Source: an uncultured Actinomycetes bacterium (lineage in GTDB: Bacteria; Actinomycetota; Thermoleophilia; UBA2241). From it: a DNA stretch of 64,000 nt. Positions 50,918-63,567 of this stretch are shown here, piece by piece. The stretch lies in NCBI GenBank assembly GCA_963767005.1, contig CAVYCN010000012.1:109089-173088 (forward strand), given 5' to 3'. The first letter of the stretch is position 1; the number at the start of each line of letters is the position of its first letter. Under the pieces are notes generated by a model. The model searched no databases. It saw only the letters and a list, made by a program, of their open reading frames with translations, and was not told where the DNA came from. The position numbers and the translations under genes are program-made.

Positions 50918-51068
50918 CCCTGGTGTCCTGGCTTGCCGCTTCGTCCTACTGGCCGCGCCTTCCCACCCCGCGGGGCAGTGGCGGTGTGCGGCGTTCGTCG
51001 GCGGTCACAGTTGCGGGGCAGCGCCGGCCTTGCACCGGCTTCCCGTACGACCGGGGGGACCCGCCAAC
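50918..51068 (-). ncRNA. Cobalamin riboswitch
   Basis: Minus strand GGGAAGCCGGTGCAAGGCCGGCGCTGCCCCGCAACTGTGA...GCCACTG...GGGAAGGC...AAGCCAGGACACC upstream of cobU; boundaries approximate. Confidence 0.95.
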
Positions 51069-51178: not shown

Positions 51179-51796
51179 TCAGCGGACCACGAAGACGGGG
51201 CAGGGCGCCCGGCGCACGACCTCGGCCGTCACGCCCGGCGCGAGCACGGCCGCGAGCCACGAGCTGCGCCCGCCGCCGAGCACGATCACCTGGGCGCCGA
51301 TCTCCTCGGCCTCCCACACGATGTGGCGCGCGACCTTGTCCTGCGGCGCGCAGCGGAGCTGTCCGCGACAGGTCACGCCGTGGGCGCGCAGCTCGCCCAG
51401 CACGGGCTCGAGCAGGGCGGCGCCTTCGGCCCGGGTCTCGCCGGGCAGTGGGCCGGCCCAGCGCCCGGACAGGCCGTGGCAGCAGACGTGGAGCGCCTCG
51501 ACGACACCGGTCCCGCGCAGCGCCAGAGCGAGAGCGGTCCGCGTGGCTCTGCGCGTCGACGAGCACCGGTCGACCGCGAGCAGGACGCGCCACGACTCGG
51601 CGGCCAGCAGGTCGTCGGCGTCGGCGCCGTCCGCGAGCAGCCCGGCGAGCTCCCCCTCGAGGCCGCCGAGCTCGCTCTCGAGCGCGCTGCAGCGCTGCCG
51701 CAGCTCGGGGCGCGCGCGGACGGCCTTCAGCAGCCGGACGTCCGAGCCCAGGCCGAGCACGAAATCGACGAGCTCCTCATCGGTGAAGTCGTTCAT
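51179..51796 (-). CDS. Universal stress protein with an N-terminal anti-sigma-like helical domain
   Basis: USP part: RVLLAVD...IVLGG...VTAEVVRRAPCPVFVV. The first ~55 aa resemble the N-terminus of 7980..8774. Confidence 0.8.
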   Translation of the reverse strand: MNDFTDEELVDFVLGLGSDVRLLKAVRARPELRQRCSALESELGGLEGELAGLLADGADADDLLAAESWRVLLAVDRCSSTRRATRTALALALRGTGVVEALHVCCHGLSGRWAGPLPGETRAEGAALLEPVLGELRAHGVTCRGQLRCAPQDKVARHIVWEAEEIGAQVIVLGGGRSSWLAAVLAPGVTAEVVRRAPCPVFVVR

Positions 51797-51935
51797 CGCG
51801 CCCGCCGTGCCGCGGTGGTCGCAGGTCGAGCCACGCGCCGACGACGACGCCGCCGGCGGCGATCAGCACGACGACGATCGCGGCGAGCACGTCCACGGCG
51901 CTCACGGCGCCGGCCGCCGCCGCTGCCACGTTCAT
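51777..51935 (-). CDS. Small single-TM protein (52 aa)
   Basis: MNVAAAAAGAVSAVDVLAAIVVVLIAAGGVVVGAWLDLR...; ATGA-coupled to the upstream gene. Confidence 0.5.
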   Translation of the reverse strand: MNVAAAAAGAVSAVDVLAAIVVVLIAAGGVVVGAWLDLRPPRHGGRDERLHR

Positions 51936-52246
51936 CGTGCCGCCCCCCCTCGAGCCATCCGTCCACGCTCCGGACGGACGACCTCGCCGTCGGTGGCGTC
52001 GTCGCGGTCGCCGGCGTCGTCGTCGGGCCAGGCGTCGACGCCGGCTCCCCAGGCGATCCAGCGCGCGTACACGAGGTCCCTGCGCGCCACCATCACGCGC
52101 AGCTCGTCGCCGTGGAACCCGCGACCGCGGCCGCAGGCCCACCCTCCCCAGACCTGAACGTCGACCCCGCGCGCGACCAGCGCCTGGCGCACGTCGAAGG
52201 CCCGCGCGATGTCGGTAGAGCAAAAGAGCTCGCACAGCTCGTCCAT
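51932..52246 (-). CDS. Hypothetical protein (DUF2007-like)
   Basis: SD GAGGAGG; pattern A..VRQALVARGV...LRVMVARRDL..AR. Confidence 0.55.
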   Translation of the reverse strand: MDELCELFCSTDIARAFDVRQALVARGVDVQVWGGWACGRGRGFHGDELRVMVARRDLVYARWIAWGAGVDAWPDDDAGDRDDATDGEVVRPERGRMARGGAAR

Positions 52247-52285
52247 GACCTGGCCTCCTCGATCGGCGCGGCCTCGCCCACGGCC

Positions 52286-52738
52286 TCAGGCCGACTGGGC
52301 CGCGGGCGGCGTCCCCGCCTCGCCCGCCGCGGCGGTCACCGGCTTGACCACCATGACCGGGCAGTCCGCAAGCTGGATGACCTTGTAGGCGACACTACCC
52401 AGGAGAAGGCCGGCGAAGGCGCCGAGCCGGCGGGAGCCGAGGACGATGGCGTCGGCCTCGAAGCCTCCGGCGGCCAGCAGGATCTCGCGCGCGACCCCGC
52501 CGGCGCGAGACGCCCGGATCTCGGTCTGCACCGGCACACCCTGTCTTCTGACGCCGCCGACCACACTCGCCACGAGCCGGGTGCCGTCGGGCGCGGCGCC
52601 GGCGTGCGCCGCGCCTTGATCGTCGACGTGCACGACGAGGACCTCTCCGCCCGATTTGCGCGCCAGGTCGATCGTCGCGGCGATCGCTCCGCCGGCCTCG
52701 TCTGCTCCGTCGATCGCCAGGACGATCCGCTCGAACAT
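52286..52738 (-). CDS. Universal stress protein
   Basis: MFERIVLAIDG...IVLGSR...LLGSVAYKVIQLADCPVMVV. Confidence 0.93.
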   Translation of the reverse strand: MFERIVLAIDGADEAGGAIAATIDLARKSGGEVLVVHVDDQGAAHAGAAPDGTRLVASVVGGVRRQGVPVQTEIRASRAGGVAREILLAAGGFEADAIVLGSRRLGAFAGLLLGSVAYKVIQLADCPVMVVKPVTAAAGEAGTPPAAQSA

Positions 52739-52924
52739 GCTGCCACCGCCTTGCCGCGCATCACGGCGACGCGTCGCTCCGGCGTCTGCTCGGGACCTGG
52801 GGTCGCCCGGCTAACGCCTGCGCCGCCACCCCAAGGCTACGCGGCAAACGGGACGCCGCCATCGGGCCTTCGGTCGGTCTTGGGCTCGGCCGAACGGCCG
52901 ATGCGCGCGTGGGCCGCGCGGCGC

Positions 52925-53584
52925 CTAGATGAGGCGGTGGCGCACCGCGATCGCGGCGGCCTCGGTGCGGCTCGACGCGCCCAGCTTGGTGATCACGCTG
53001 CTCACGTGCGTCTTCACCGTGGACAGGCTGATCACGAGGCGCTCGGCGATGCCGGCGTTCGACAGCCCCTCGGCCACGAGGGCCAGCACCTGGCACTCGC
53101 GCCGAGTGAGGTCGGCGCCGACCGCCGCGGGCGCCGCGAGCTCGCGGATCAGCACCTCGGCCACCTCGGGTGCGAGCGTCGAGCGCCCGGCGTGGGCGTC
53201 GCGCACGGCGGCGGCGAGCTGCTCGCCGGTGACGTTCTTGAGCAGGTAGCCGATCGCGCCGGCGCGCAGGGCGCCCTGGATCAGCTCTTCGTCGGAGAAG
53301 CTCGTGAGCGCCAGCACCCGGGTGGCGGGGCACTCGCGCAGGATCTCCGCGGTCGCCTCGACGCCGCTCATGCCGGGCATGACGAGGTCCATGAGCACGA
53401 CGTCGGGGCGCAGCTCGCGGGCCGCCGCCATGGCCGTCGCGCCGCTGTCGGCCTCGCCCACCACCGCGATGTCGTCGCAGAGCCGCAGGATGCCCTGCAG
53501 GCCGCGGCGCACGAGCTCGTGGTCGTCGACGATCAGGACGCCGATCGTGCCGGTCGACGTGGCCTCGTCGCTCACCGCGATCAT
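52925..53584 (-). CDS. NarL/LuxR-family response regulator
   Basis: VDDHELVRRG, PDVVLMDL, LTRRE and TVKTHV motifs. Confidence 0.95.
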   Translation of the reverse strand: MIAVSDEATSTGTIGVLIVDDHELVRRGLQGILRLCDDIAVVGEADSGATAMAAARELRPDVVLMDLVMPGMSGVEATAEILRECPATRVLALTSFSDEELIQGALRAGAIGYLLKNVTGEQLAAAVRDAHAGRSTLAPEVAEVLIRELAAPAAVGADLTRRECQVLALVAEGLSNAGIAERLVISLSTVKTHVSSVITKLGASSRTEAAAIAVRHRLI

Positions 53585-55059
53585 CCCCCTCCCGACGGCC
53601 AGCAGGCCGTGACCAGCGTACCACCGCCGGCCTCGCTTGCGACCACGAGCGAGGCCTCGACCGCCGCGGCGCGCTCCCGCATGATGCGCAGCCCGAGCTG
53701 CTCCGGGCCCACGGCGGCAGGGTCGAAGCCGCGGCCGTCGTCGCCGACCACGAGGCGCACCTGGGTATCGGAACCATCCAGCGCGATCCAGGCTCGCCCG
53801 GCGTGCGCGTGTCGCACGATGTTGTTCATCGCCTCCTGAGCGATCCGGTACAGGGCGATCGTGACGTCGGCCGGCAGCGGCGGCGCGGGCCCGACCGACA
53901 GCTCCACCGCCGTATGCGTACGCGCCTGGGTCGCCTGCGCCACGTGGTCGAGCAGGTCGGTGAGCGGCGACTGGCCCAGGGCGCCGGGGCGCATCTCCAT
54001 GAGCATGGCGCGCATCTCGGCGAGAGCGCCACGTGTGAGGCGCTGCACGTCGACGAGGCCCTCGCGCGACCCGGGAGACGTGCAGTCGGGCGCCTTGAGC
54101 AGCGCCTCGGCCGTGAGGCTGGCCGCGAACAGCGACTGCGTGACCGAGTCGTGCAGCTCACGCGCCAGCCGCGAGCGCTCGGCCGCCACGGCGGAGGTCT
54201 CGACCTGCTCGCGCAGCCGCGCGTTCTCGATCGCGAGGGCCGCCTGATCGGCGAACGACGACGCCAGGCCGAGATCGTCGGGCGAGAACGAGACCGCTCG
54301 CGCGTAGGGCAGGGCGATCGCGCCGAACGTGTCGCTGCGCACGGTCAGGGGCAGCACCAGCAGGTGGGACGAGCCGAGCGGCCGGCGGGCCACGACGGCG
54401 CGCTCGAGCGCGCCGTCGCGCAGCTCGGCCGCGATCTCCGCTGCCCTCTCGTCGCTCAGGTCGACGGCGGCGAGCAGGCGCGGCCTGTCGTCGCCTGACT
54501 CGACGCGAAAGAGCCCACCGCCGTCGGCCGCCAGCAGCTGGCGGGCCTGCGTCACGATGTCGAGGAGCAGCTCCGACAGCGGCCGGTCCGAGTCGAGCAC
54601 CGACACCTCCTGCAGGCGCTGGACCTGCGCGGTGAGCGAGTGCAGGCGGGCCGTGATCGTGCGTTCCCGCTCGTAGAGGCGGTCGTAGCGGTTGTAGAGC
54701 GAGCCGAGGGCGATCAGACCGGCGCCGGCCAGGGCGCCGAAGACGATGAGGAGGATGTTCTGCAGGTTGGCGCGGCCTTGGAGGACCATCACGTACACGG
54801 TGAGCGCCAGGCAGACGGCGCTGACCGCGACGACGGCCCAGCGCTCGCGCAGCGCGAACGTGACGAGCAGCAGGGGAAGCAGGTAGAAGCCGGCGATGGC
54901 GTAGCCCGGTATCAGCAGGTCGAGCACGAACGCCATGGCGATGCCGACCGCGGCGAGAGCGAGCACCACCTCACGGTGCAGGCGCAGCCAGTCGACCGTG
55001 AGCAGCGCACGCCGGAAGCTGCGTCCGGCCGCACCTGCGCCGGTTTCCGACCACGACAT
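53581..55059 (-). CDS. Membrane GAF-containing HisKA_3 sensor kinase
   Basis: 4 TMs, GAF region (AALAIENARL), RLARELHDSV, QEAMNN and DDGRGF motifs. Confidence 0.92.
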   Translation of the reverse strand: MSWSETGAGAAGRSFRRALLTVDWLRLHREVVLALAAVGIAMAFVLDLLIPGYAIAGFYLLPLLLVTFALRERWAVVAVSAVCLALTVYVMVLQGRANLQNILLIVFGALAGAGLIALGSLYNRYDRLYERERTITARLHSLTAQVQRLQEVSVLDSDRPLSELLLDIVTQARQLLAADGGGLFRVESGDDRPRLLAAVDLSDERAAEIAAELRDGALERAVVARRPLGSSHLLVLPLTVRSDTFGAIALPYARAVSFSPDDLGLASSFADQAALAIENARLREQVETSAVAAERSRLARELHDSVTQSLFAASLTAEALLKAPDCTSPGSREGLVDVQRLTRGALAEMRAMLMEMRPGALGQSPLTDLLDHVAQATQARTHTAVELSVGPAPPLPADVTIALYRIAQEAMNNIVRHAHAGRAWIALDGSDTQVRLVVGDDGRGFDPAAVGPEQLGLRIMRERAAAVEASLVVASEAGGGTLVTACWPSGGG

Positions 55060-55174
55060 GAGGACCGCCCCCTCGCGCCCTCTCGCCGGACCGCGCTGCC
55101 GCGACATCCCAAGGCGCGGCCGGTCCGGCCTCGACCCTACGGGCCCATCATAGCGCCCCCGGCTTATACTCGCC

Positions 55175-55852
55175 GTGATGGCTCCGACCACGGTCACAGA
55201 CGACCTGCGGCTCTCGCCGCTGCTGGCCGGTCTTGCCGACGCCCAGATCGCGTCGCTTGCCGAGCTGGCGGCGCCGGTGACCCTGCCGGCCGAGACCGGT
55301 GTCTTCTTGCAGGGTGACCCCGGGGAGGCCTTCTACCTGCTCGCCGCGGGCGCGGTGAAGGTCCTCAAGTCGTTCCGCGACGGGCGCACGGCGACCATCC
55401 GCCACGTGCGGCCCGGCGAGACCTTCGGCGAGTCGGTGCTCTTCAACGACACCTATCCGGCGAGCGCCGAGACCATGGCGACGTCGCGCCTCTACCGCTT
55501 CGGCCGCGACGACTTCCGCGCCCTGGTGCTCAACGAGCCCGAGCTCGGCCTGCGCCTGATCGCCACCATGGCCCACCTCCTGGTCATGCTCAACCAGCGC
55601 GTCGAGGAGCTGCTCCTGCCCGTGCCGGCTCGGCTGGCGCGCTACCTGCTCGAGCTCTGCGGCGAACAGGGCACGCCGGGGCAGTGCAGCCTGAGCGTGC
55701 CCAAGCACGAGGTCGCGGCCCGGCTGGGCACCGTGCCCGAGACCCTGAGCCGCACCCTGGGCCGCCTGGAGCGCGGCGGCCTGATCGCCGCGCGCGGCGC
55801 CACCTACACGGTGATCAACCGCGCCGGTCTCGAGCGCCTCGCGCAGCAGTAG
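55175..55852 (+). CDS. Crp/Fnr-family regulator (DNR/HcpR-like, no Fe-S Cys cluster)
   Basis: cNMP-like domain (GETFGE) and HTH GTVPETLSR carrying the FNR-type ExxSR. Confidence 0.92.
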   Translation: MMAPTTVTDDLRLSPLLAGLADAQIASLAELAAPVTLPAETGVFLQGDPGEAFYLLAAGAVKVLKSFRDGRTATIRHVRPGETFGESVLFNDTYPASAETMATSRLYRFGRDDFRALVLNEPELGLRLIATMAHLLVMLNQRVEELLLPVPARLARYLLELCGEQGTPGQCSLSVPKHEVAARLGTVPETLSRTLGRLERGGLIAARGATYTVINRAGLERLAQQ

Positions 55853-55951
55853 CGGGCCGCCCCGCGGCCGCTCTCCTAGCCGCGCGTTTCGACCGGTCGA
55901 CTCCACGACGTGGCCTTGCGGCGGCCGGAAGGGCCCGGGCCGAACGGCCGC

Positions 55952-55965
55952 TTGATGCAAGTCAA
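55952..55965. promoter_or_regulatory. FNR/DNR-type box
   Basis: TTGATGCAAGTCAA (consensus TTGAT-N4-ATCAA, 1 mismatch), centred about 30 bp upstream of -10 TACGGT (55989), i.e. class II spacing. Confidence 0.75.
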
Positions 55966-56093
55966 GGGAACGTTGCCGCGCAGGCGGGTACGGTTGGCTC
56001 GAGCGCAGGGAGCGCGGCCCGAGACCCCCTCCTCACCCTGACTGACCACAAGCGAGCCGCCGCGCGGCTCCTCGAACGAAAGCGAGCGCGACC

Positions 56094-56483
56094 ATGGCGA
56101 TAGTGACCCGCAGCATCGTCCACATCGACGAGGAGAAGTGCACCGGCTGCGGCCTGTGCGTGCTGCCCTGCGCCGAGGGGGCCATCGAGCTCGTCGACGG
56201 CAAGGCGAAGGTTGTGAAAGAGGAGCTGTGCGACGGCGCCGGCTTCTGCCTGGCCGTCTGTCCCGAAGGGGCGCTCACCGTCGAGCACCGCGAGGCGCCG
56301 GCGTTCGACGAGGACGCGGCGGCCGAGCGCACGGCCGCCAAGCTCGCGTCCGGCGCCGTCATGGTCCAGACCTGCTTCGCCTGCGGGCGCAGCGAGATGG
56401 ACAGCCCGCTGCTGCCGGTGCGCACCGAGGGCCGCAGCACCTGGGTGTGCGTCAAGTGCCTGCCGCAGCTCATCCACGGCTGA
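56094..56483 (+). CDS. 4Fe-4S dicluster protein with C-terminal CxxC...CxxC
   Basis: CTGCGLCVLPC, CDGAGFCLAVCP, CFAC and CVKC motifs. Confidence 0.9.
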   Translation: MAIVTRSIVHIDEEKCTGCGLCVLPCAEGAIELVDGKAKVVKEELCDGAGFCLAVCPEGALTVEHREAPAFDEDAAAERTAAKLASGAVMVQTCFACGRSEMDSPLLPVRTEGRSTWVCVKCLPQLIHG

Positions 56484-56587
56484 CCGACCTTACGGGCGGG
56501 TGACCGTCGCCGACGGCGCCGCTCCCCGCCCGCACCGCACGACCGACGGCCGCGCGCCCCGCGCGACGAGCCCCGACAAGGAGGACC

Positions 56588-58477
56588 ATGGAGACCACAG
56601 GGACACGTGACAGCCTGCACGGCTCGGTGAACGCCGTGCTCGAGCGCACCCGCGCCGCCGGCGAGGACACCGTCTTCGACCGCATGCAGGCGCAGGGCGA
56701 GCGGCGCTGCCAGTTCTGCGAGGGCGGCATCCGCTGCTCGATCTGCTCGCAGGGCCCCTGCCGCATCACCGCCAAGGCGCCGCGCGGCGTCTGCGGCATC
56801 GACGCCGACGGCATGGCGATGCGCGGCTTCCTGCTGCAGAACACGATGGGCGCCGCCGCCTACACCTACCACGCCGGCGAGGTCATGAAGACGCTGGCGC
56901 AGGCCAAGCCGGGCGGCACCTACGAGATCAAGGACTGGAGCAAGCTCGAGCTGCTCGCCCGCGGCGCGGGCGTCGAGCTCGAGCCGCGCGACACGCTGGC
57001 CAAGCGCGTCGCCGACACGATCTGGGCCGAGTTCAACCGCGACCATCACGAGGAATCGCCGCTCATCGCGGCCTTCGCGCCGGCCCCCCGCGTCGCGGCC
57101 TGGCGCAAGCTCGGCGTCATGCCCGGCGGCGTGCTGCACGAGAACAACCGTTGCACCACGAGCTGCATGACCAACATCGACGGCGACTACGTGTCGCTCG
57201 CCGTCAAGGGCCTGCGCCTCGGTCTCGCCACCGCCTACGGCGCCCAGGTGCCGCTCGAGCTCGCCCAGGACGCCCTGTTCGGCACGCCCACGCCGCACGC
57301 CATCAAGGTTGACCTCGGCATCCTCGACGCCACGTATGTGAACGTCGTCGTCAACGGCCACGAGCCCATGCTGGGCGCCGCCCTGATCGACGCCGCGCAC
57401 GCCGACGCCGTCCAGGCCGCCGCCCGTGCCGCCGGCGCCCAGGGCTTGCGCATCGTGGGCAGCATCGAGACCGGCCAGGAGCTCGTGCAGCGCTTCCCGG
57501 TCGACGACGTCTTCGTCGGGCTCACCGGCAACTGGCTGGCGACCGAGATGGTCGTGGCGACCGGCGCCGTCGACGTGTTCGCGGCCGACATGAACTGCAC
57601 CGTGCCGACCCTGGCCGACACCTGCAAGGCCCACGGCACGCTGCTCATCCCGGTGAGCGACCTCATGGGCATCCCCGGCGCCGAGCCGGCCGTCGTGTTC
57701 GATCCCGCCAAGGCGGCCGAGCAGGCGCGGACACTCATCGACCGGGCGATCGCCAACTTCCCGTCGCGCAAGGCGCGTCTGAACGGCAACGGCGTGACCG
57801 GCCTGCGCACCGGCGACGCCGTCGCCGGCTTCTCGACCGAGAGCATCCTCGCCGCGCTCGGCGGCAGCCTCGACCCGCTGCTCGACGTGATCAAGAACGG
57901 CACGCTGCGCGGCGTCGCCGGCCTGGTGAGCTGCACCACGCTGCGCGACTCCGGCCAGGACAGCATGACGGTGGCCGTCGCCCGCGAGCTCATCAAGCAC
58001 GACGTGCTCGTGCTCTCGATGGGCTGTGGCAACGCCGCCTGCCAGGTCGCCGGGTTGCAGGACCTGAAGGCCAAGGAGCTCGCGGGCCCCGGCCTGCAGG
58101 CCGTCTGCGACCTGCTCGGCATCCCGCCGGTGCTGTCGTTTGGCACCTGCACCGACACCGGCCGCATCATGCTGCTGGTCGGCGCCATCGCCGACGCCCT
58201 GGGCGTCGACGTGCCGGCGTTGCCCGTGGTGGCAACGGCGCCCGAGTACATGGAGCAGAAGGCGACGATCGACGCCATGGCCGCCCTCGCCTTCGGCCTG
58301 TACGTGCACGTCAACCCAGTCCCCTTCGTGACCGGCGCGCCGCGCCTGGTCAAGCTCGTCACCGAGGACCTGCCCGGCGTGACCGGCGGCAAGCTCGCCG
58401 TCGAGACCGACCCGATTGAGGCCGTCGCGGCCATGCTCGCGCACATCGAGGCGAAGCGGACCGCGCTCGGCATCTAA
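56588..58477 (+). CDS. cooS: Ni-CODH (CooS) family protein with non-canonical ligands
   Basis: CSICSQGPC...CG B-cluster, NGHEP, DMNC, SC, MGC, GTCTD and EQKA motifs; D-cluster is CxxC; GSIETG replaces GxCCTG. Confidence 0.88.
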   Translation: METTGTRDSLHGSVNAVLERTRAAGEDTVFDRMQAQGERRCQFCEGGIRCSICSQGPCRITAKAPRGVCGIDADGMAMRGFLLQNTMGAAAYTYHAGEVMKTLAQAKPGGTYEIKDWSKLELLARGAGVELEPRDTLAKRVADTIWAEFNRDHHEESPLIAAFAPAPRVAAWRKLGVMPGGVLHENNRCTTSCMTNIDGDYVSLAVKGLRLGLATAYGAQVPLELAQDALFGTPTPHAIKVDLGILDATYVNVVVNGHEPMLGAALIDAAHADAVQAAARAAGAQGLRIVGSIETGQELVQRFPVDDVFVGLTGNWLATEMVVATGAVDVFAADMNCTVPTLADTCKAHGTLLIPVSDLMGIPGAEPAVVFDPAKAAEQARTLIDRAIANFPSRKARLNGNGVTGLRTGDAVAGFSTESILAALGGSLDPLLDVIKNGTLRGVAGLVSCTTLRDSGQDSMTVAVARELIKHDVLVLSMGCGNAACQVAGLQDLKAKELAGPGLQAVCDLLGIPPVLSFGTCTDTGRIMLLVGAIADALGVDVPALPVVATAPEYMEQKATIDAMAALAFGLYVHVNPVPFVTGAPRLVKLVTEDLPGVTGGKLAVETDPIEAVAAMLAHIEAKRTALGI

Positions 58478-58711
58478 GCGACTCCCGGACCTTCCGCCCG
58501 CGTCGGCTTCCGGGCGCACCCCCGGCACCCGGCGCGGGCGGGAGTAAGGGCATCCGCCCTCACCCCCGCCCTTCCTGTGCCTTGGCTCGCGCTTCTCACC
58601 CCCGATCTCTTTGCGCCTGGGGGCTCCCTCCCGAGTTGGCGAAGTCCGTTGCGGGGGGTGACGCTCTCCCTGGACGGTTGCGCCGCGCCGCCGACGCCGC
58701 AAGATGAGGCC

Positions 58712-59716
58712 ATGGGCCTCGAGACCCCGCATCCGGCAGAGGCGCCAGCCCCCACGGGCGCCCCCAGGCTCATGGACCAGCTCCACGCCGCCCTGCGCTC
58801 GCGCCAGTACAGCCGGCGCACCGAACAGGTCTACTGTCTCTGGGTCCGCCGCTACATCCGCTTCAACGGCCTGCGCCATCCGCGCGACATGGCGGCGCCC
58901 GAGATCAACGCCTTTCTCACCCATCTGGCGACCGTCGACGGGGTCAGCGCATCCACACAGACGCAGGCGCTGTCCGCCCTCCTGTTCCTGTACCGGCACG
59001 TGCTCGGCATGCAGGTGGGCGAGCTCGGCGATGTGGTGCGGGCACGCCCGTCGCGCCGCGTACCGGTCGTCCTCACCAGGGATGAGGTGCGCAGAGTCCT
59101 GGCCCACCTCGATGGCGAACCCTGGCTCGTCGCGTCGCTTCTGTACGGCTGCGGGTTGCGCTTCAACGAGTGTCTGCGGCTCCGCGTCCAGGACGTCGAC
59201 TTCGAGCGGCACGAGATCACGGTGCGCGCCGGCAAGGGCAACAAGGATCGGCACACCATGCTGCCGCACTCGCTTGCGGGCCCGCTCAGCGACCAGATCG
59301 AGAGGGCCAGGTGGGTGCACCGGCGTGACCTGGCCGACAGCTGGGGGGCCGTCGTGCTGCCCGACGCGCTCGACCGCAAGTACCCCGCCGCATCGCGAGA
59401 CTGGCGCTGGCAGTGGGTCTTTCCGCAGGCGCGGCGCTGGCGGAACCGACGCACCGGCGAGCAGGGCCGTCACCACGTGCACGCCGGCCTGGTGCAGCGC
59501 GCAGTCCACCAGGCGGTGCAACGGGCCGGCGTGGCCAAGCGCGCCTCCTGCCACACGCTGCGACACTCGTTTGCGACCCACCTGCTCGAATCGAGCTACG
59601 ACATCCGCACGATCCAGGAGCTCCTCGGCCACCGCAGCGTGAGCACGACCATGATCTACACGCATGTGCTGAACGCCGGCGGCCAGGGCGTGCGCAGCCC
59701 ACTCGACGCCCTGTGA
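58712..59716 (+). CDS. intI: Integron integrase
   Basis: [36 protein letters not shown], the IntI-specific insertion [10 protein letters not shown]...[29 protein letters not shown] and TTMIYTHV. Confidence 0.97.
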
Positions 59717-59849: not shown

Positions 59850-60227
59850 GTGGACCTGACGCGGCTTCCTGAACCGCTCGTTGCTGCAGCGATCGTGAAC
59901 CAGCCTGAGGGGTGCGAGCATGTCGCTTGGCTCCGCGCACATGCCCTGGAGGTGCTTCGGTACCTGGCCGGGTTCGATGTGGCCGTGCTCGGCGGTGACG
60001 TCTTGGTGCACGACGTTCACGGCTTCCGCCACGCCTACGACAACTGGACCTGTGCGCATCAGGTTGGCGAGAGCTGGCCCGACTACGCAACGCGAAGCCG
60101 GCACGAGGCCGAGGCATACGTGGTCCGCTACCCGGAGCGCGGAGAGACCGCCTACGTGCTCGTGCTGCAGGAGGAGCCGTCAGCCCGCGACCTTCTACTC
60201 TCAAGGGGAGTCGATGCCGGCGCCTAA
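59850..60227 (+). CDS. Cassette 1: Imm40-like immunity protein
   Basis: AW...LGGDV...YDNW...RS...A..Y pattern; SD GGAGG; TAA lies inside attC R''. Confidence 0.65.
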   Translation: MDLTRLPEPLVAAAIVNQPEGCEHVAWLRAHALEVLRYLAGFDVAVLGGDVLVHDVHGFRHAYDNWTCAHQVGESWPDYATRSRHEAEAYVVRYPERGETAYVLVLQEEPSARDLLLSRGVDAGA

Positions 60228-60308
60228 CAAGCAGTTAGAGTTGACTACTCAGTGGCCGCGCCAAGGACTATCGTCTGTCTGCGCAGCTCAACTGCAACCC
60301 CGTTAGAC
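60222..60308 (+). repeat. attC1 (87 bp)
   Basis: GCCTAAC...GCAGTTaGAG/CTCAACTGC...GTTAGAC. Confidence 0.92.
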
Positions 60309-60325
60309 GTACTCAAGGGGGGAGC

Positions 60326-60886
60326 GTGGGCAGCTTCTACACGAACGTCACTCTCGCGAGAGCAACGCCGCAGGCGACGCTCGACGCGCTCGGCTCGCGC
60401 CGGGCCCTCCTGGCCGGCGTCGGCGAACGGGTGCTGGTGTTCGACAAGGCCTGCGAATCGCAGGACCCTCAGGTTCTCGCGGCGCTGTGCGCAGAGCTTT
60501 CGTCCCGGGTCGGCTGTGCTGCGCTCGGTGCGTCGAACCATGACGACGACGTGCTCATGCTGTTTCTGTTCAACGACGGTCGCCCCGTCACCGACTACAA
60601 CTCCTGTCCAGGCTACTTCGGGGGTGACGAACGGCCGCCCTCCGTCGTCGATGCGGCCGCGCTGTGCAAGGCGTTCGGCGTCGAGCAGGCTGCCTCACGC
60701 CTCGCAGCGATCCTGGCCTCCGAAGATGATGACATGCTGTTTGCCACCGACCGTCACCAAGCCGTAGTCGACGCACTCGGGCTGCCGACCGCGAGTGTCG
60801 GGTTCGGCTTTGAGTACCTCATGGCCGGCGAATTGCCCGAGGGCCTCGACGCGGCCGATTTGGTTGCGAGTGGTGGAGACGTCTAA
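60326..60886 (+). CDS. Cassette 2: hypothetical protein
   Basis: 186 aa with SD; TAA lies inside attC R''. Confidence 0.8.
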   Translation: MGSFYTNVTLARATPQATLDALGSRRALLAGVGERVLVFDKACESQDPQVLAALCAELSSRVGCAALGASNHDDDVLMLFLFNDGRPVTDYNSCPGYFGGDERPPSVVDAAALCKAFGVEQAASRLAAILASEDDDMLFATDRHQAVVDALGLPTASVGFGFEYLMAGELPEGLDAADLVASGGDV

Positions 60887-60973
60887 CAAGCACATCGAGC
60901 AGACCGGCCGCCAAGGTGGGCTCCGCGTGAACCGTCATCCACGGCCGACAGCTCATGTGCCAACCCGTTAGGT
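60881..60973 (+). repeat. attC2 (93 bp)
   Basis: GTCTAAC...GCACATcGAGC/GCTCATGTGC...GTTAGGT. Confidence 0.92.
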
Positions 60974-61043
60974 GCGGCAACGTCACCCTCCCCGCCGGCC
61001 CAGCCGCGTAGTATCCTTCGCGTAGGGTCTTCAGGAGGTCGCC

Positions 61044-61256
61044 TTGTCCGTCCATTTCCGAATCGAGCTTGAACAAGAGACCGACGGGCGCTGGATCGCC
61101 GAGGTCGTCGAACTGCCGGGCGTGCTCGCCTACGGTGCCTCGCAAGACGAGGCCGTCGCCCACGTCCAAGCGCTCGCCCTGCGCGTGGTAGCCGACCGCC
61201 TTGAACACGACGAGGCCGGCCGCGAGTACCTGGACATCTCCTTCAAGGCCGCGTGA
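61044..61256 (+). CDS. hicB: Cassette 3: short HicB-like antitoxin
   Basis: EQETDGRWIAEVVELPGVLAYG.S.DEA; SD AGGAGG. Confidence 0.85.
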   Translation: MSVHFRIELEQETDGRWIAEVVELPGVLAYGASQDEAVAHVQALALRVVADRLEHDEAGREYLDISFKAA

Positions 61257-61468
61257 GCGACTGGCCGTCCACCCGTGCTCGCACGGTGTTGGCGGCCCTC
61301 TTGCGTCTCGGCTGGACGGTCAAGCGTCAGACGGGCTCGCACAAGACCCTCTCCCGCCCCGGCTGGTCCGATCTGGTCTTCGCTTTCCACGACCGTGACG
61401 AGATCGGCCCGAAGATGCTCGCCCGCATCGCCAAGAACAGTGGTCTTCGCCCCGAGGACCTGCGATGA
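61253..61468 (+). CDS. hicA: Cassette 3: HicA mRNase toxin
   Basis: LLRLGW..KRQTGSH...FH...EIGPKML; 4-bp overlap with hicB. Confidence 0.88.
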   Translation: MSDWPSTRARTVLAALLRLGWTVKRQTGSHKTLSRPGWSDLVFAFHDRDEIGPKMLARIAKNSGLRPEDLR

Positions 61469-61472
61469 GCGC

Positions 61473-61559
61473 ACCTAACAAGCATTTCGAGCAGACTCGC
61501 CGAATGAGTACGCCAAGAGCGAGCGCCTCCCTCGCAGCTCAAATGCAGCCCCGTTGGGC
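61473..61559 (+). repeat. attC3 (87 bp)
   Basis: ACCTAAC...GCATTTcGAGC/GCTCAAATGC...GTTGGGC. Confidence 0.92.
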
Positions 61560-61628
61560 CTACTCCTCCACTCGTCGCGTGGCTCCCAGCGTCTTGCGCG
61601 GGTAGTATTCGCGACGGAGGTCCTCTTC

Positions 61629-61937
61629 ATGGTCGACGTGCTCCACGACAAGCAGCAGGCCATCGCCGAGTTGTGTGCCCGCCACGGCGTGGCGCGCCTC
61701 GACGTCTTCGGTTCGGCTCTGCGCGACGACTTCCGCCCCGGTGAGAGCGACATCGACTTCTTGGTCGAGTTCGCACCGCACGAGGGCTACGCGCTCGTCG
61801 ACGCCTACTTCGGCCTGCTCGACGACTTGCGGGCCCTGCTGGGCACGGATGTCGACCTCGTCATGGCCGACGCCGTCAAGAACCGCTACATCGCCCGCGA
61901 GATCGAGAACACCAGGCAACCGCTCTATGCAGCGTGA
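61629..61937 (+). CDS. Cassette 4: minimal nucleotidyltransferase antitoxin (MntA-like)
   Basis: FGSALR...SDIDFLVEF and VDLV motifs. Confidence 0.9.
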   Translation: MVDVLHDKQQAIAELCARHGVARLDVFGSALRDDFRPGESDIDFLVEFAPHEGYALVDAYFGLLDDLRALLGTDVDLVMADAVKNRYIAREIENTRQPLYAA

Positions 61938-62280
61938 GGTAGGCGCCTACCTGCAGGACATCATCGACGCCTGTGCGGCGATCGAGTCAGACCTTGCCGA
62001 CCTTACCTTCGATGCCTACCTTGCCACACGGGCCGTGCGCTCAGCCGTCGAGCGCGAGTTCATCATCGTCGGTAAGGCAGCCGCCGCGCTTGCTCACCTC
62101 GACGCCGATCTGTTCGACAAGATCAGCCACGGCCGACGCATCGTCGACTTTCGCAACCAGCTCACGCATGCCTACCAGCTCGTCGACGATCGTATCGTGT
62201 GGTTGATCGCCGCCAACGACGTGCCTGTGCTCAGGCGGGAGTGCGAGGAGCTTCTTCGGGGCTTTGCGGGAGAGGCCTAA
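61927..62280 (+). CDS. Cassette 4: HEPN/DUF86 RNase toxin (HepT-like)
   Basis: YLQDI...AVER...FRNQLTHAY (Rx4HxY). Confidence 0.9.
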   Translation: MQREVGAYLQDIIDACAAIESDLADLTFDAYLATRAVRSAVEREFIIVGKAAAALAHLDADLFDKISHGRRIVDFRNQLTHAYQLVDDRIVWLIAANDVPVLRRECEELLRGFAGEA

Positions 62281-62361
62281 CAAGCATTTCGAGCAGACTC
62301 GCCGAATGTCTCTGCCAAGAGCGACCGCCTCGCTCGCAGCTCAAATGCAAGACCGTTAGGC
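62275..62361 (+). repeat. attC4 (87 bp)
   Basis: GCCTAAC...GCATTTcGAGC/GCTCAAATGC...GTTAGGC. Confidence 0.92.
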
Positions 62362-62377
62362 CTACAGAAGACTCGGC

Positions 62378-62841
62378 ATGGCATTGATTACAGATCGGGT
62401 GGCACAGGCCCGCGTCGGCACCAACGACCGCGTCATCGCGCGTCTTCGCTCGGCTGAGCGGTCCTGGGTGACGACCAGCGTCTGCCCGGCTACTGCCTGT
62501 TGCTCCCCGATCCCGTGGTCTCCAGCCTCAACGATCTCTCCGAGCCAGCTCGCGCCGAGTTCCTTTCGGACATGGCGCGGATTGGCGACGTGATCCTCTC
62601 GGTGACCGGAGCCGAACGGGTGAACTACGAGATCCTGGGCAACTCCGAGCCCGAGCTTCATGCCCACATACATCCCCGGTATGCCGACGAACCGGCCGAG
62701 GGCCGCCGCTTGCCGGTGTGGTTCTACGAGCTGCAGGACGCGGTAACGTACTCGCGGCGACGGCCTGCCCGACCTCTGGAGCAGCTTCGTGCGGCCCTGC
62801 AGTCTGAGACCCAACAGGCATTTCGAGCAGGCTCGCAGTAG
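62378..62841 (+). pseudogene. Cassette 5: HIT-family hydrolase pseudogene
   Basis: MALITDRV...IARLRS continues in another frame after a 1-bp loss near 62451, with a TGA at the expected Trp (G*AVLGDDQRLPGYCLLLPDP...NYEILGN..PELHAHIHPRY). Confidence 0.8.
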
Positions 62842-62895
62842 GGTTGCGCCAAGAGCGGGCGTTTCGCTCGCAGGTCAAATGCAATCCCGTTAAGC
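62809..62895 (+). repeat. attC5 (87 bp, partly degenerate)
   Basis: ACCCAAC...GCATTTcGAGC/GGTCAAATGC...GTTAAGC. Confidence 0.88.
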
Positions 62896-62927
62896 CGATG
62901 CGGCCACCGTTGGACCAGGGGCACAGC

Positions 62928-63518
62928 GTGACCATCGGAATCTCGAAGCTGGAGACGTGTCACCGAGACGCCTTCCTTGGGGTGCTGGACGACTGCGACG
63001 CTCACGACCCGAGAAACGGCGAGTTCTACCTGGCCGGGCGCGCCGACTTCAATGCCTATGTGCAGGGCCTGCACGACATGGAGCGTGGTATCAACCTGCC
63101 GCAGGGCTGGGTTCCCAGCTCCAACCGCTGGCTGTTCGACGACGCCGGCGAGATCTGCGGCGTGGTTCGAGTCAGGCACAACATCGACACGCCGTTTCTA
63201 GCCGGGGAGGCGGGTCACATCGGCTACGACGTGCCGCCGAGCAAGCGCGGGCGTGGCTACGGTGTAGCAAGCCTGCGCGCGGGACTGGCCGAGGCGCGAC
63301 GGCTCGGGCTGATGCGGGTGCTGCTGTGCGCGAACACGGGTAACCCCGCATCCTGGCGCACCATTGAAGCCTGCAGCGGTGTGTTCGAGCGCGAGTTCCA
63401 CTCGGAGTTCTTTGGCTGTCTGGTGCGCCGCTACTGGATCGACGTTTCCCAGGCACAAGGTCACGGTGCACTGGCCCAACAAGCAGTTAGAGCAGACGCC
63501 GCCCGCAGGTATGCTTGA
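62928..63518 (+). CDS. Cassette 6: GNAT-family acetyltransferase
   Basis: GWVP...VRH...GHIGYDVPPSKRGRGYG...NPASWRTIE..G; reads through attC R''. Confidence 0.85.
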   Translation: MTIGISKLETCHRDAFLGVLDDCDAHDPRNGEFYLAGRADFNAYVQGLHDMERGINLPQGWVPSSNRWLFDDAGEICGVVRVRHNIDTPFLAGEAGHIGYDVPPSKRGRGYGVASLRAGLAEARRLGLMRVLLCANTGNPASWRTIEACSGVFEREFHSEFFGCLVRRYWIDVSQAQGHGALAQQAVRADAARRYA

Positions 63519-63567
63519 GTTCGCAACGCAACCGGCGCGGCGCAGCTCAAGTGCAGCGACGCTAGAC
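63474..63567 (+). repeat. attC6 (94 bp, degenerate core)
   Basis: GCCCAAC...GCAGTTaGAGC/GCTCAAGTGC...GCTAGAC (GTT changed to GCT). Confidence 0.8.

Follow-up and report, generated by a model that had tools for sequence, protein, structure and literature searches.

The window analyzed here, a stretch of 64,000 nt from an uncultured Actinomycetes bacterium (Thermoleophilia, UBA2241; contig CAVYCN010000012.1 of assembly GCA_963767005.1, positions 109,089–173,088), carries on its + strand, in this order, a gene for a Crp/Fnr regulator, an FNR-type box, a ferredoxin gene and cooS. By sequence and predicted fold, the CooS protein is securely placed in CooS-V/group D-1, and is a new member of this already described group. 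Encoded behind an HcpR1-type box and predicted not to oxidize CO, it has, in our judgement, about an even chance of taking over the role of Hcp, in this lineage, as a reductase under nitrogen-oxide stress. The original prediction for this locus had called it HcpR-style, a description borne out by conservation of the HcpR1-type box, a distribution complementary to that of hcp, and the occurrence of the box before hcp in family f4 and before qNor in family f1 (f1 is the family of the window; f4 and f6 are other families of class Thermoleophilia; G and L codes denote genomes and loci).

The enzyme, its promoter and its regulator

The cooS gene (56588–58477, + strand) has a GGAGG ribosome site 5 nt 5′ of its ATG and encodes 629 residues. 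All coordinates and motifs of the original prediction were re-read correctly in the DNA: the B-cluster cysteines (C50/C53/C58/C69) and five of six C-cluster ligands are kept, YTYH (residues 92–95) replaces HxxH, and a CxxC D-cluster motif (C41/C44) is present, as in 41 of 41 aligned relatives. Glu294, in the motif GSIETG (codon GAG, 57467–57469), occupies the position of Cys295 in true CO dehydrogenases (CODHs) and of Glu295 in CooS-V, and aligns with Glu295 of PDB entry 7B7Q. Overlooked earlier were K558 and E556, an extra Hcp-type Glu corresponding to Glu556 of CooS-V. The D-1 signature is complete, comprising E294, H258, four Cys, Y92 in place of the catalytic His, K558 with E556 two residues before it, and the CxxC motif; besides Glu294, the hybrid-cluster ligands are H258, C337, C449, C480, C521 and E556. 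The D-1-defining residues are invariant in all 41 aligned relatives. With E294 and Y92, the complete C-cluster ligand set and acid–base His of Ni,Fe-CODHs are not present. Group D-1 is defined by these residues, and its active-site set is reported to be identical to that of Hcp (PMC6344411; papers cited by PMC number are drawn on here in part).

The closest CooS relatives (72–96% identical) belong mostly to uncultured Thermoleophilia or Actinomycetota. Among PDB sequences, the best phmmer match is Carboxydothermus hydrogenoformans CooS-V (7B7Q, 684.6 bits), followed by an entry scoring 401. An AlphaFold model (pLDDT 90.4) has 7B9A and 7B7Q as its top Foldseek matches (TM 0.96–0.97, 52% identity), and true CODHs are 30–35% identical. 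The protein passes the CODH profile TIGR01702 (727 bits, cut-off 478) and falls far below the Hcp profile TIGR01703 (37.3 bits, cut-off 360.8). Placement among the CODH clades, proposed in the original prediction, puts it in the Glu subclade of clade D, within a single clade of 39 Glu-type sequences with support 100 (FastTree, 54 rows; the CooS-V sequence itself is not in the tree). Within this tree the f1 proteins form their own subclade, apart from two proteins of other lineages (loci L080 and L238).

Characterized CooS-V contains no Ni and has a bridging [2Fe–2S] cluster, a [4Fe–4S] cluster and a redox-morphing Fe/S/O cluster; its substrate channel opens only in the reduced state, and it shows no CO or CO2 activity (PMC9311411). 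The C295E variant of CODH-II loses both Ni and CO oxidation (PMC6344411, PMC9311411). Because the window protein sits in the CooS-V group, its own cluster is expected to be Ni-free, and by analogy we predict a homodimer with [2Fe–2S], [4Fe–4S] and Ni-free Fe/S/O hybrid clusters. There is no adjacent cooC, as had been noted, and none was found genome-wide by tblastn with two CooC queries. The earlier view of a CooS-V-like protein that is not a CO dehydrogenase thus stands, given the complete D-1 residues, the best matches to 7B7Q/7B9A, and the failure of searches to find CooC, ACS or a CooA box.

Upstream of the ferredoxin gene lies the FNR-type palindrome TTGAT-N4-GTCAA (55952–55965; spacer GCAA), the predicted activator site of the upstream regulator; the family consensus is TTGAC-N4-GTCAA. 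The comparison covered 45 Thermoleophilia-type loci, of which 44 have the ferredoxin; upstream DNA of 260 nt or more is available for 40, and TTGAY-N4-RTCAA precedes the ferredoxin in every one of these. By chance the motif would be expected 0.0004 times per 260 nt (five occurrences in the 3.44-Mb genome), and 40 f1 genomes hold 144 sites against 41 for a reversed-pattern control. A low-scoring TTGA-N6-TCAA site at C3:106653 was left out of the site count. A −10-like hexamer, TACGGT (55989–55994, + strand), follows the box after 23 nt, and all 41 boxes scored have a TAnnnT element beginning 22–24 nt downstream. From this hexamer the box centre is predicted at about −42, a class II activator geometry, in agreement with the spacing originally proposed; hcp promoters of f4 mostly show the same box-to-−10 distance. 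A scan for the sigma-70 consensus found none at this promoter, as expected for an activator-dependent promoter. The published HcpR1 motif is wyTTGACnnnnGTCAArw, with Pro/Ser at helix position 180 (PMC1274295, PMC545781). The window box and the Pro–Glu helix of the regulator fit this rule, and not the TGTC-N8-GACA of CooA; the latter pattern is absent from 54500–58600, and regulation of the CooA type was rejected.

The regulator gene (55178–55852, + strand; alternative GTG start at 55175) encodes a Dnr/HcpR1-like Crp/Fnr-family protein of 224 residues. As previously described, the protein lacks the N-terminal FNR Cys cluster and has an ExxSR recognition helix, P187-E188-T-L-S-R192 (55736–55753, + strand); its two Cys (161 and 170) lie in the DNA-binding half. 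No other Crp/Fnr transcription factor was found in the genome; a second cNMP match sits in a 996-aa frame. P187 and E188 are present in 120 of 120 homologues, and Met131 in 119. Within the 6 kb retrieved per locus, 24 of the 45 loci contain the regulator gene, which stands immediately ahead of the box in 10 of them, and 40 of 46 f1 genomes contain a close match. The Joint Genome Institute often annotates relatives as a "dissimilatory nitrate respiration regulator". In a regulator tree (48 rows, IQ-TREE), the f1 and f4 proteins and two cooSV-linked regulators of other lineages group together with support 84/83, so that orthology with the hcp-linked regulators, judged from sequence, is weakly resolved. 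A residue before the recognition helix, a His in Dnr that we take to be a haem ligand there, is Arg182 in the window regulator. A regulator of f6 was rejected as an orthologue and is not counted as support: it has an R-E-T helix, is mostly without the box, and groups elsewhere in the tree. Its loci continue with a stand-alone protein of the type found at the C-terminus of the window ferredoxin and a COX1-like membrane protein, and one of them has the Hcp-associated domain TIGR03980.

The ferredoxin (56094–56483, + strand; 129 aa) lies between regulator and cooS as originally described. Its second cluster motif has three Cys only (C46, C52 and C56), and it has an extra C-terminal CxxC…CxxC domain (C94/97/119/122). 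Its N-terminal Fe–S domain, compared over 78 aa (residues 5–82), shares 51% identity with a family of 260-aa ferredoxins, called FrdX-like here from its gene context; members of this family adjoin D-1 genes at unrelated loci, and in G014 one immediately precedes hcp. The C-terminal CxxC…CxxC-LIHG domain (56373–56480) matches no Pfam or NCBIfam family and has no ESM Atlas match at or above 0.9; it recurs as a stand-alone small protein after the different Crp regulator of f6 (L159:3838–4026; 47% identical). Four metatranscriptomes contained only contigs of relatives, most 85–95% alike; in three runs, some of these contigs extend across the gap from the ferredoxin stop codon to the start of cooS. 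This is at most a weak hint that ferredoxin and cooS share one transcript, and is silent on induction.

Distribution of the gene and of the box

The assembly, of 3.44 Mb in 19 contigs with completeness 100, contains one PF03063 match, the window cooS. No relative of ACS, AcsD, CooC, Hcp, NrfA, Ric, NnrS or DUF1858 was found in it by tblastn; one flavodiiron protein was. The D-1 gene is the only CODH/Hcp-family match in 11 of 40 f1 genomes, the window genome included. CooS-V relatives have been described as occurring only alongside another CODH (PMC9311411).

Hcp (TIGR01703) is found in 2 of 46 f1, 37 of 44 f4 and 2 of 21 f6 genomes. D-1 has the opposite distribution, being present in 29 of 40 f1 genomes, 1 of 42 f4 and 0 of 21 f6 genomes. 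In 23 of the 29 the gene is full length and in 6 it is partial or fragmented; another f1 genome retains a remnant. Pieces or remnants at G143:C56, G233:C6, G218:C9 and G138:C4 reflect decay or sequencing error. Four f6 matches (42–43%) fall outside the Glu clade and were rejected as D-1. In f4 there are 20 regulator matches, 18 of which lie in divergent orientation to hcp. Thirteen f4 regulator loci, picked for having a regulator match, were read: hcp is present in 12, and a VPETLSR helix and the box in all, mostly with the same −10 spacing; in those 12 the box separates regulator and hcp. Some f4 hcp genes adjoin a TetR gene and are without the box. Neither of the two f1 hcp genes has a box in the regions read, and hcp is not a core target of the f1 box.

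Sixty-six non-ferredoxin sites in f1, mostly of the strict TTGAC…GTCAA form, were read and 39 assigned. They precede genes for a cupin (14 genomes), a Tat-exported Mo oxidoreductase (nine), hemerythrin (four, in one as second gene), qNor (three), Rrf2 (two), a group 3b-like hydrogenase (two), an unknown protein (two), and narG, ric and feoA (one each). Scanning the upstream regions of named genes over 50 f1 genomes found an exact box about 100 nt upstream of qNor in four of four cases, three of which had first been seen through the box. A flavodiiron control gave 0 of 29 (the first 29 suitable loci of 55 matches), and the background was 0 of 1500 for an exact box and 0.7% within one mismatch. 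The "narG second gene" matches were cross-matches inside a Mo-enzyme gene and were disregarded. The f1 regulon leans to nitrogen oxides, though not purely.

Two of these box targets were examined further. The Mo enzyme (G000 C6:238000–244512 and C15:3000–12000; L142, L143) is a Tat-exported member of the DMSO-reductase family, not NarG, in an operon with Fe–S and NrfD-like subunits; its box is conserved in nine genomes, and the two copies look identical and are probably an assembly duplicate. The other is a small Cupin_2 protein (L314:1069–1437 and 13 other f1 genomes). Similar cupins (L056:10438–10803, L089:207–581) occur near D-1 in Methanoculleus-type loci and beside hcp in one f4 genome.

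The neighborhood survey of Glu-type cooS suggested in the original prediction covered 80 metagenome loci and 35 genome loci from outside Thermoleophilia. Regulator, box and cooSV stand in a row at L238 (44% G+C), and at L080, a deltaproteobacterial locus, the box lies 88 nt upstream of cooSV in a genome without an Hcp match (completeness not given). Five D-1 loci have Rrf2 and an FrdX-like ferredoxin gene, Methanoculleus-type loci have cupins and DUF488, and most archaeal loci have none of these features. At L225, D-1 lies beside glutaredoxin and ferredoxin–thioredoxin-reductase-like genes. Plasmids searched contained two distant CooS and no D-1 relative.

Published tables hold related arrangements, in which we take COG2846 to be Ric and COG0426 to be flavodiiron protein. 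In Supplementary Table 2 of PMC6344411, COG0664 is a neighbor in 8 of the 60 D-1 rows examined, of 304 occurrences; three rows of cultured Desulfitobacterium hafniense place D-1, COG0664 and COG2846 in one directon, and two Clostridium beijerinckii D-1 rows have two COG0426 genes. Table 5 of that paper gives COG0664 a similarity of 0.13 with D-1 (by column count), and COG0664 neighbors are treated there as CooA. According to a 2026 survey, 9.9% of clade D genes lie beside transcription regulators; in the parts of it drawn on here, the role of clade D is called unproven, with no proof of a stress role and no clear neighborhood pattern, and HcpR is not mentioned (PMC13056359).

Proposed function and alternatives

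In the favored scheme, nitric oxide (NO) would activate the adjacent Crp/Fnr protein, probably through haem as in Dnr/HcpR proteins; haem-based NO sensing is reported for the Dnr–HcpR group (PMC12750200). The activated regulator would switch on ferredoxin–cooS from the box at about −42. The ferredoxin would then pass low-potential electrons via the [2Fe–2S] and [4Fe–4S] clusters to the hybrid cluster which, reduced and open, may convert NO to N2O, the reaction suggested for Hcp, or may reduce a related N-oxide. The genomic context fits the Hcp-substituting enzyme of the original prediction; substitution itself stays a conjecture, and a characterized CooS-V without detectable NO reduction speaks against it.

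Several observations weigh against such a role. NO reduction by CooS-V went undetected by two methods, with a high background; its kcat for hydroxylamine is 0.13 per s, with an efficiency about 100-fold below that of Hcp, and its midpoint potentials lie about 300 mV below those of Escherichia coli Hcp, which its authors read as a sign of a different function (PMC9311411). No invariant His or Cys that might serve as haem ligand was found among the 120 regulator homologues. The 84/83 group in the regulator tree also contains a Thermus nar regulator and a Microbacterium protein, and an approximately unbiased test of f1 and f4 together (p 0.34) does not reject the grouping, which is not the same as showing a clade. 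The commonest extra targets of the f1 box are the cupin (14 genomes) and the Tat-exported Mo oxidoreductase (9 genomes). As consistent regulon members, ric and narG mostly failed: ric has an exact box in one of eight cases and a box within one mismatch in two of eight, and narG one exact and one one-mismatch box among four genes with enough upstream DNA, a fifth being too short. The window genome yielded no NrfA, NarG, qNor, Ric or NnrS in the searches run, and its other boxes precede the Mo enzyme, the group 3b-like hydrogenase and the unknown protein.

The distribution also has its exceptions. Eleven of 40 f1 genomes are without an intact D-1 gene, G020 and G016 carry both D-1 and hcp, and the f1–f4 comparison is one lineage contrast, not many independent events. 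Six f1 genomes without intact cooS (G008, G038, G110, G122, G138 and G168) keep box and ferredoxin, so cooS is dispensable and the ferredoxin is the steadier target of the box. More broadly, no other clade is found together with Hcp as often as clade D, and 64% of clade D genes are without operon neighbors (PMC13056359); substitution of Hcp is therefore not general.

Much of this could also be read as the same Ni-free enzyme under a general activator of anaerobic respiration or redox response, with CooS-V reducing another low-potential substrate or countering oxidative stress and the likeness to hcp regulons reflecting shared DNA-binding specificity only. TTGA-N6-TCAA boxes are common to FNR, Dnr and HcpR1 (PMC1274295, PMC545781), and the Mo oxidoreductase and hydrogenase targets, the Thermus nar regulator, the undetected NO reduction and un-Hcp-like potentials of CooS-V (PMC9311411), and the redox genes beside D-1 at L225 would all suit this account. 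We nevertheless regard it as somewhat improbable, since the box precedes qNor in four of four cases against 0 of 29 for the flavodiiron control, a mean of 3–4 sites per genome is too few for a global anaerobiosis regulator, and the equivalent f4 regulator is divergent to hcp in 18 of 20 cases. NO might instead induce an operon in which CooS-V is non-catalytic, acting as a stoichiometric sink for NO or hydroxylamine or as an Fe or sulfur donor that repairs nitrosylated Fe–S clusters, with the ferredoxin as the main regulated product. The very slow turnover of CooS-V and its reversibly formed persulfide (PMC9311411), the persistence of box and ferredoxin after loss of cooS, and the presence of Rrf2–NifU-like, ric, feoA and hemerythrin genes among the box targets are in keeping with this. 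The intact electron-transfer chain and a substrate channel gated by redox state speak instead for a reductase (PMC9311411), no ligand varies among the 41 sequences, and, at least with hydroxylamine, the published CooS-V assays relied on artificial electron donors (PMC9311411); a sink or repair function thus appears unlikely.

Least probable by far, to the point of being barely credible, is the reading in which a CO sensor controls a functional Ni,Fe-CO dehydrogenase that a distant Ni chaperone matures. The protein does score above the TIGR01702 cut-off (727 versus 478 bits), the box stands before a hydrogenase operon in the window genome, and Methanosarcina acetivorans genetics, as cited in PMC6344411, suggest a possible CO-oxidation role for its D-1 enzyme. 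Against this stand Glu for Cys295 and Tyr for the catalytic His, the absence of Ni and CO activity in CooS-V and their loss from CODH-II C295E (PMC6344411, PMC9311411), and the searches that found no CooC, ACS or CooA-type box.

It is tempting to speculate that CooS-V-type proteins are a second, convergently evolved set of ferredoxin-driven NO/N-oxide reductases, recruited more than once into HcpR/Dnr-type regulons and replacing Hcp across one anaerobic Thermoleophilia family; the negative in vitro NO result would then stem from the missing cognate ferredoxin and the high background. We hold this extension tentatively and think it rather doubtful. The HcpR1-type promoter, the partner ferredoxin and the mirror-image distribution of hcp make the role testable, with NO or nitrite as signal, the ferredoxin as donor, and rescue of an hcp mutant. 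Genomes with only a D-1 gene pass the cut-off of the CODH hidden Markov model, and would be miscounted as CO oxidizers.

Genomic surroundings and known systems

Directly after cooS lies an integron integrase gene (58622–59716, + strand; TIGR02249, 462 bits, cut-off 265). Beyond it, on the same strand as the integrase, come small open reading frames of cassette type and no fewer than six attC-like repeats (60223–63565). An integrase also follows cooS in L001 and L002. Divergent from the Crp/Fnr gene, 51182–55059 (− strand) encodes a sensor kinase (HisKA_3, GAF), a NarL/LuxR-type response regulator and two universal stress proteins; the kinase holds the same position in four of the closest loci. 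A cobalamin riboswitch (RF00174, 77.8 bits; 50922–51044, − strand) precedes a cobU gene and a cobT-like open reading frame. Elsewhere, a region of lower G+C content (G000 C3:103000–110000; L145) encodes an MtmB-like monomethylamine methyltransferase and a corrinoid protein, and no ACS was found in the genome by tblastn.

In the literature consulted, mostly without subscription papers, no report was found that links D-1 to HcpR or gives D-1 expression under NO. HcpR1-type wiring with CooS-V in the place of hcp was likewise not found in print, although a published supplement implicitly contains the adjacency.

Canonical Ni,Fe-CODHs (CODH-II, Desulfovibrio vulgaris CooS) share with the window protein the fold, the B-cluster and five of six C-cluster ligands, and D. 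vulgaris CooS also shares the CxxC bridging motif. However, identity is only 30–35%, Cys295 is replaced by Glu and the catalytic His by Tyr, and no CooC, ACS or CooA box was found. Hcp (TIGR01703) resembles the window protein in the D-1 active-site residue set, and in f4 its gene has the same regulatory box; in contrast to Hcp, the window protein has a CODH scaffold and a bridging cluster. The closest known system is CooS-V itself (PDB entries 7B7Q, 7B7T, 7B95, 7B97 and 7B9A), which has the same length (629 aa), 52% identity, a matching predicted fold (TM 0.97), hybrid-cluster ligands at equivalent positions, a Tyr where the catalytic His would be, and the CxxC bridging motif. The window protein differs in a B-cluster spacing shorter by two residues, and its gene is the sole CODH/Hcp-family gene of its genome, accompanied by a ferredoxin of its own, a regulator and a conserved box. 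In its regulation, the locus compares with the HcpR1 regulon (hcpR, frdX and hcp; described in Desulfuromonas, Geobacter, Desulfotalea and cyanobacteria; PMC1274295, PMC545781). Here the hybrid-cluster enzyme is built on a CooS scaffold instead of Hcp, and the ferredoxin has another C-terminal domain, whereas the box TTGAC-N4-GTCAA, Pro–Glu at helix positions 180–181, an FrdX-like ferredoxin, an enzyme with a hybrid cluster, and additional targets, nar and hemerythrin among them, are common to both.

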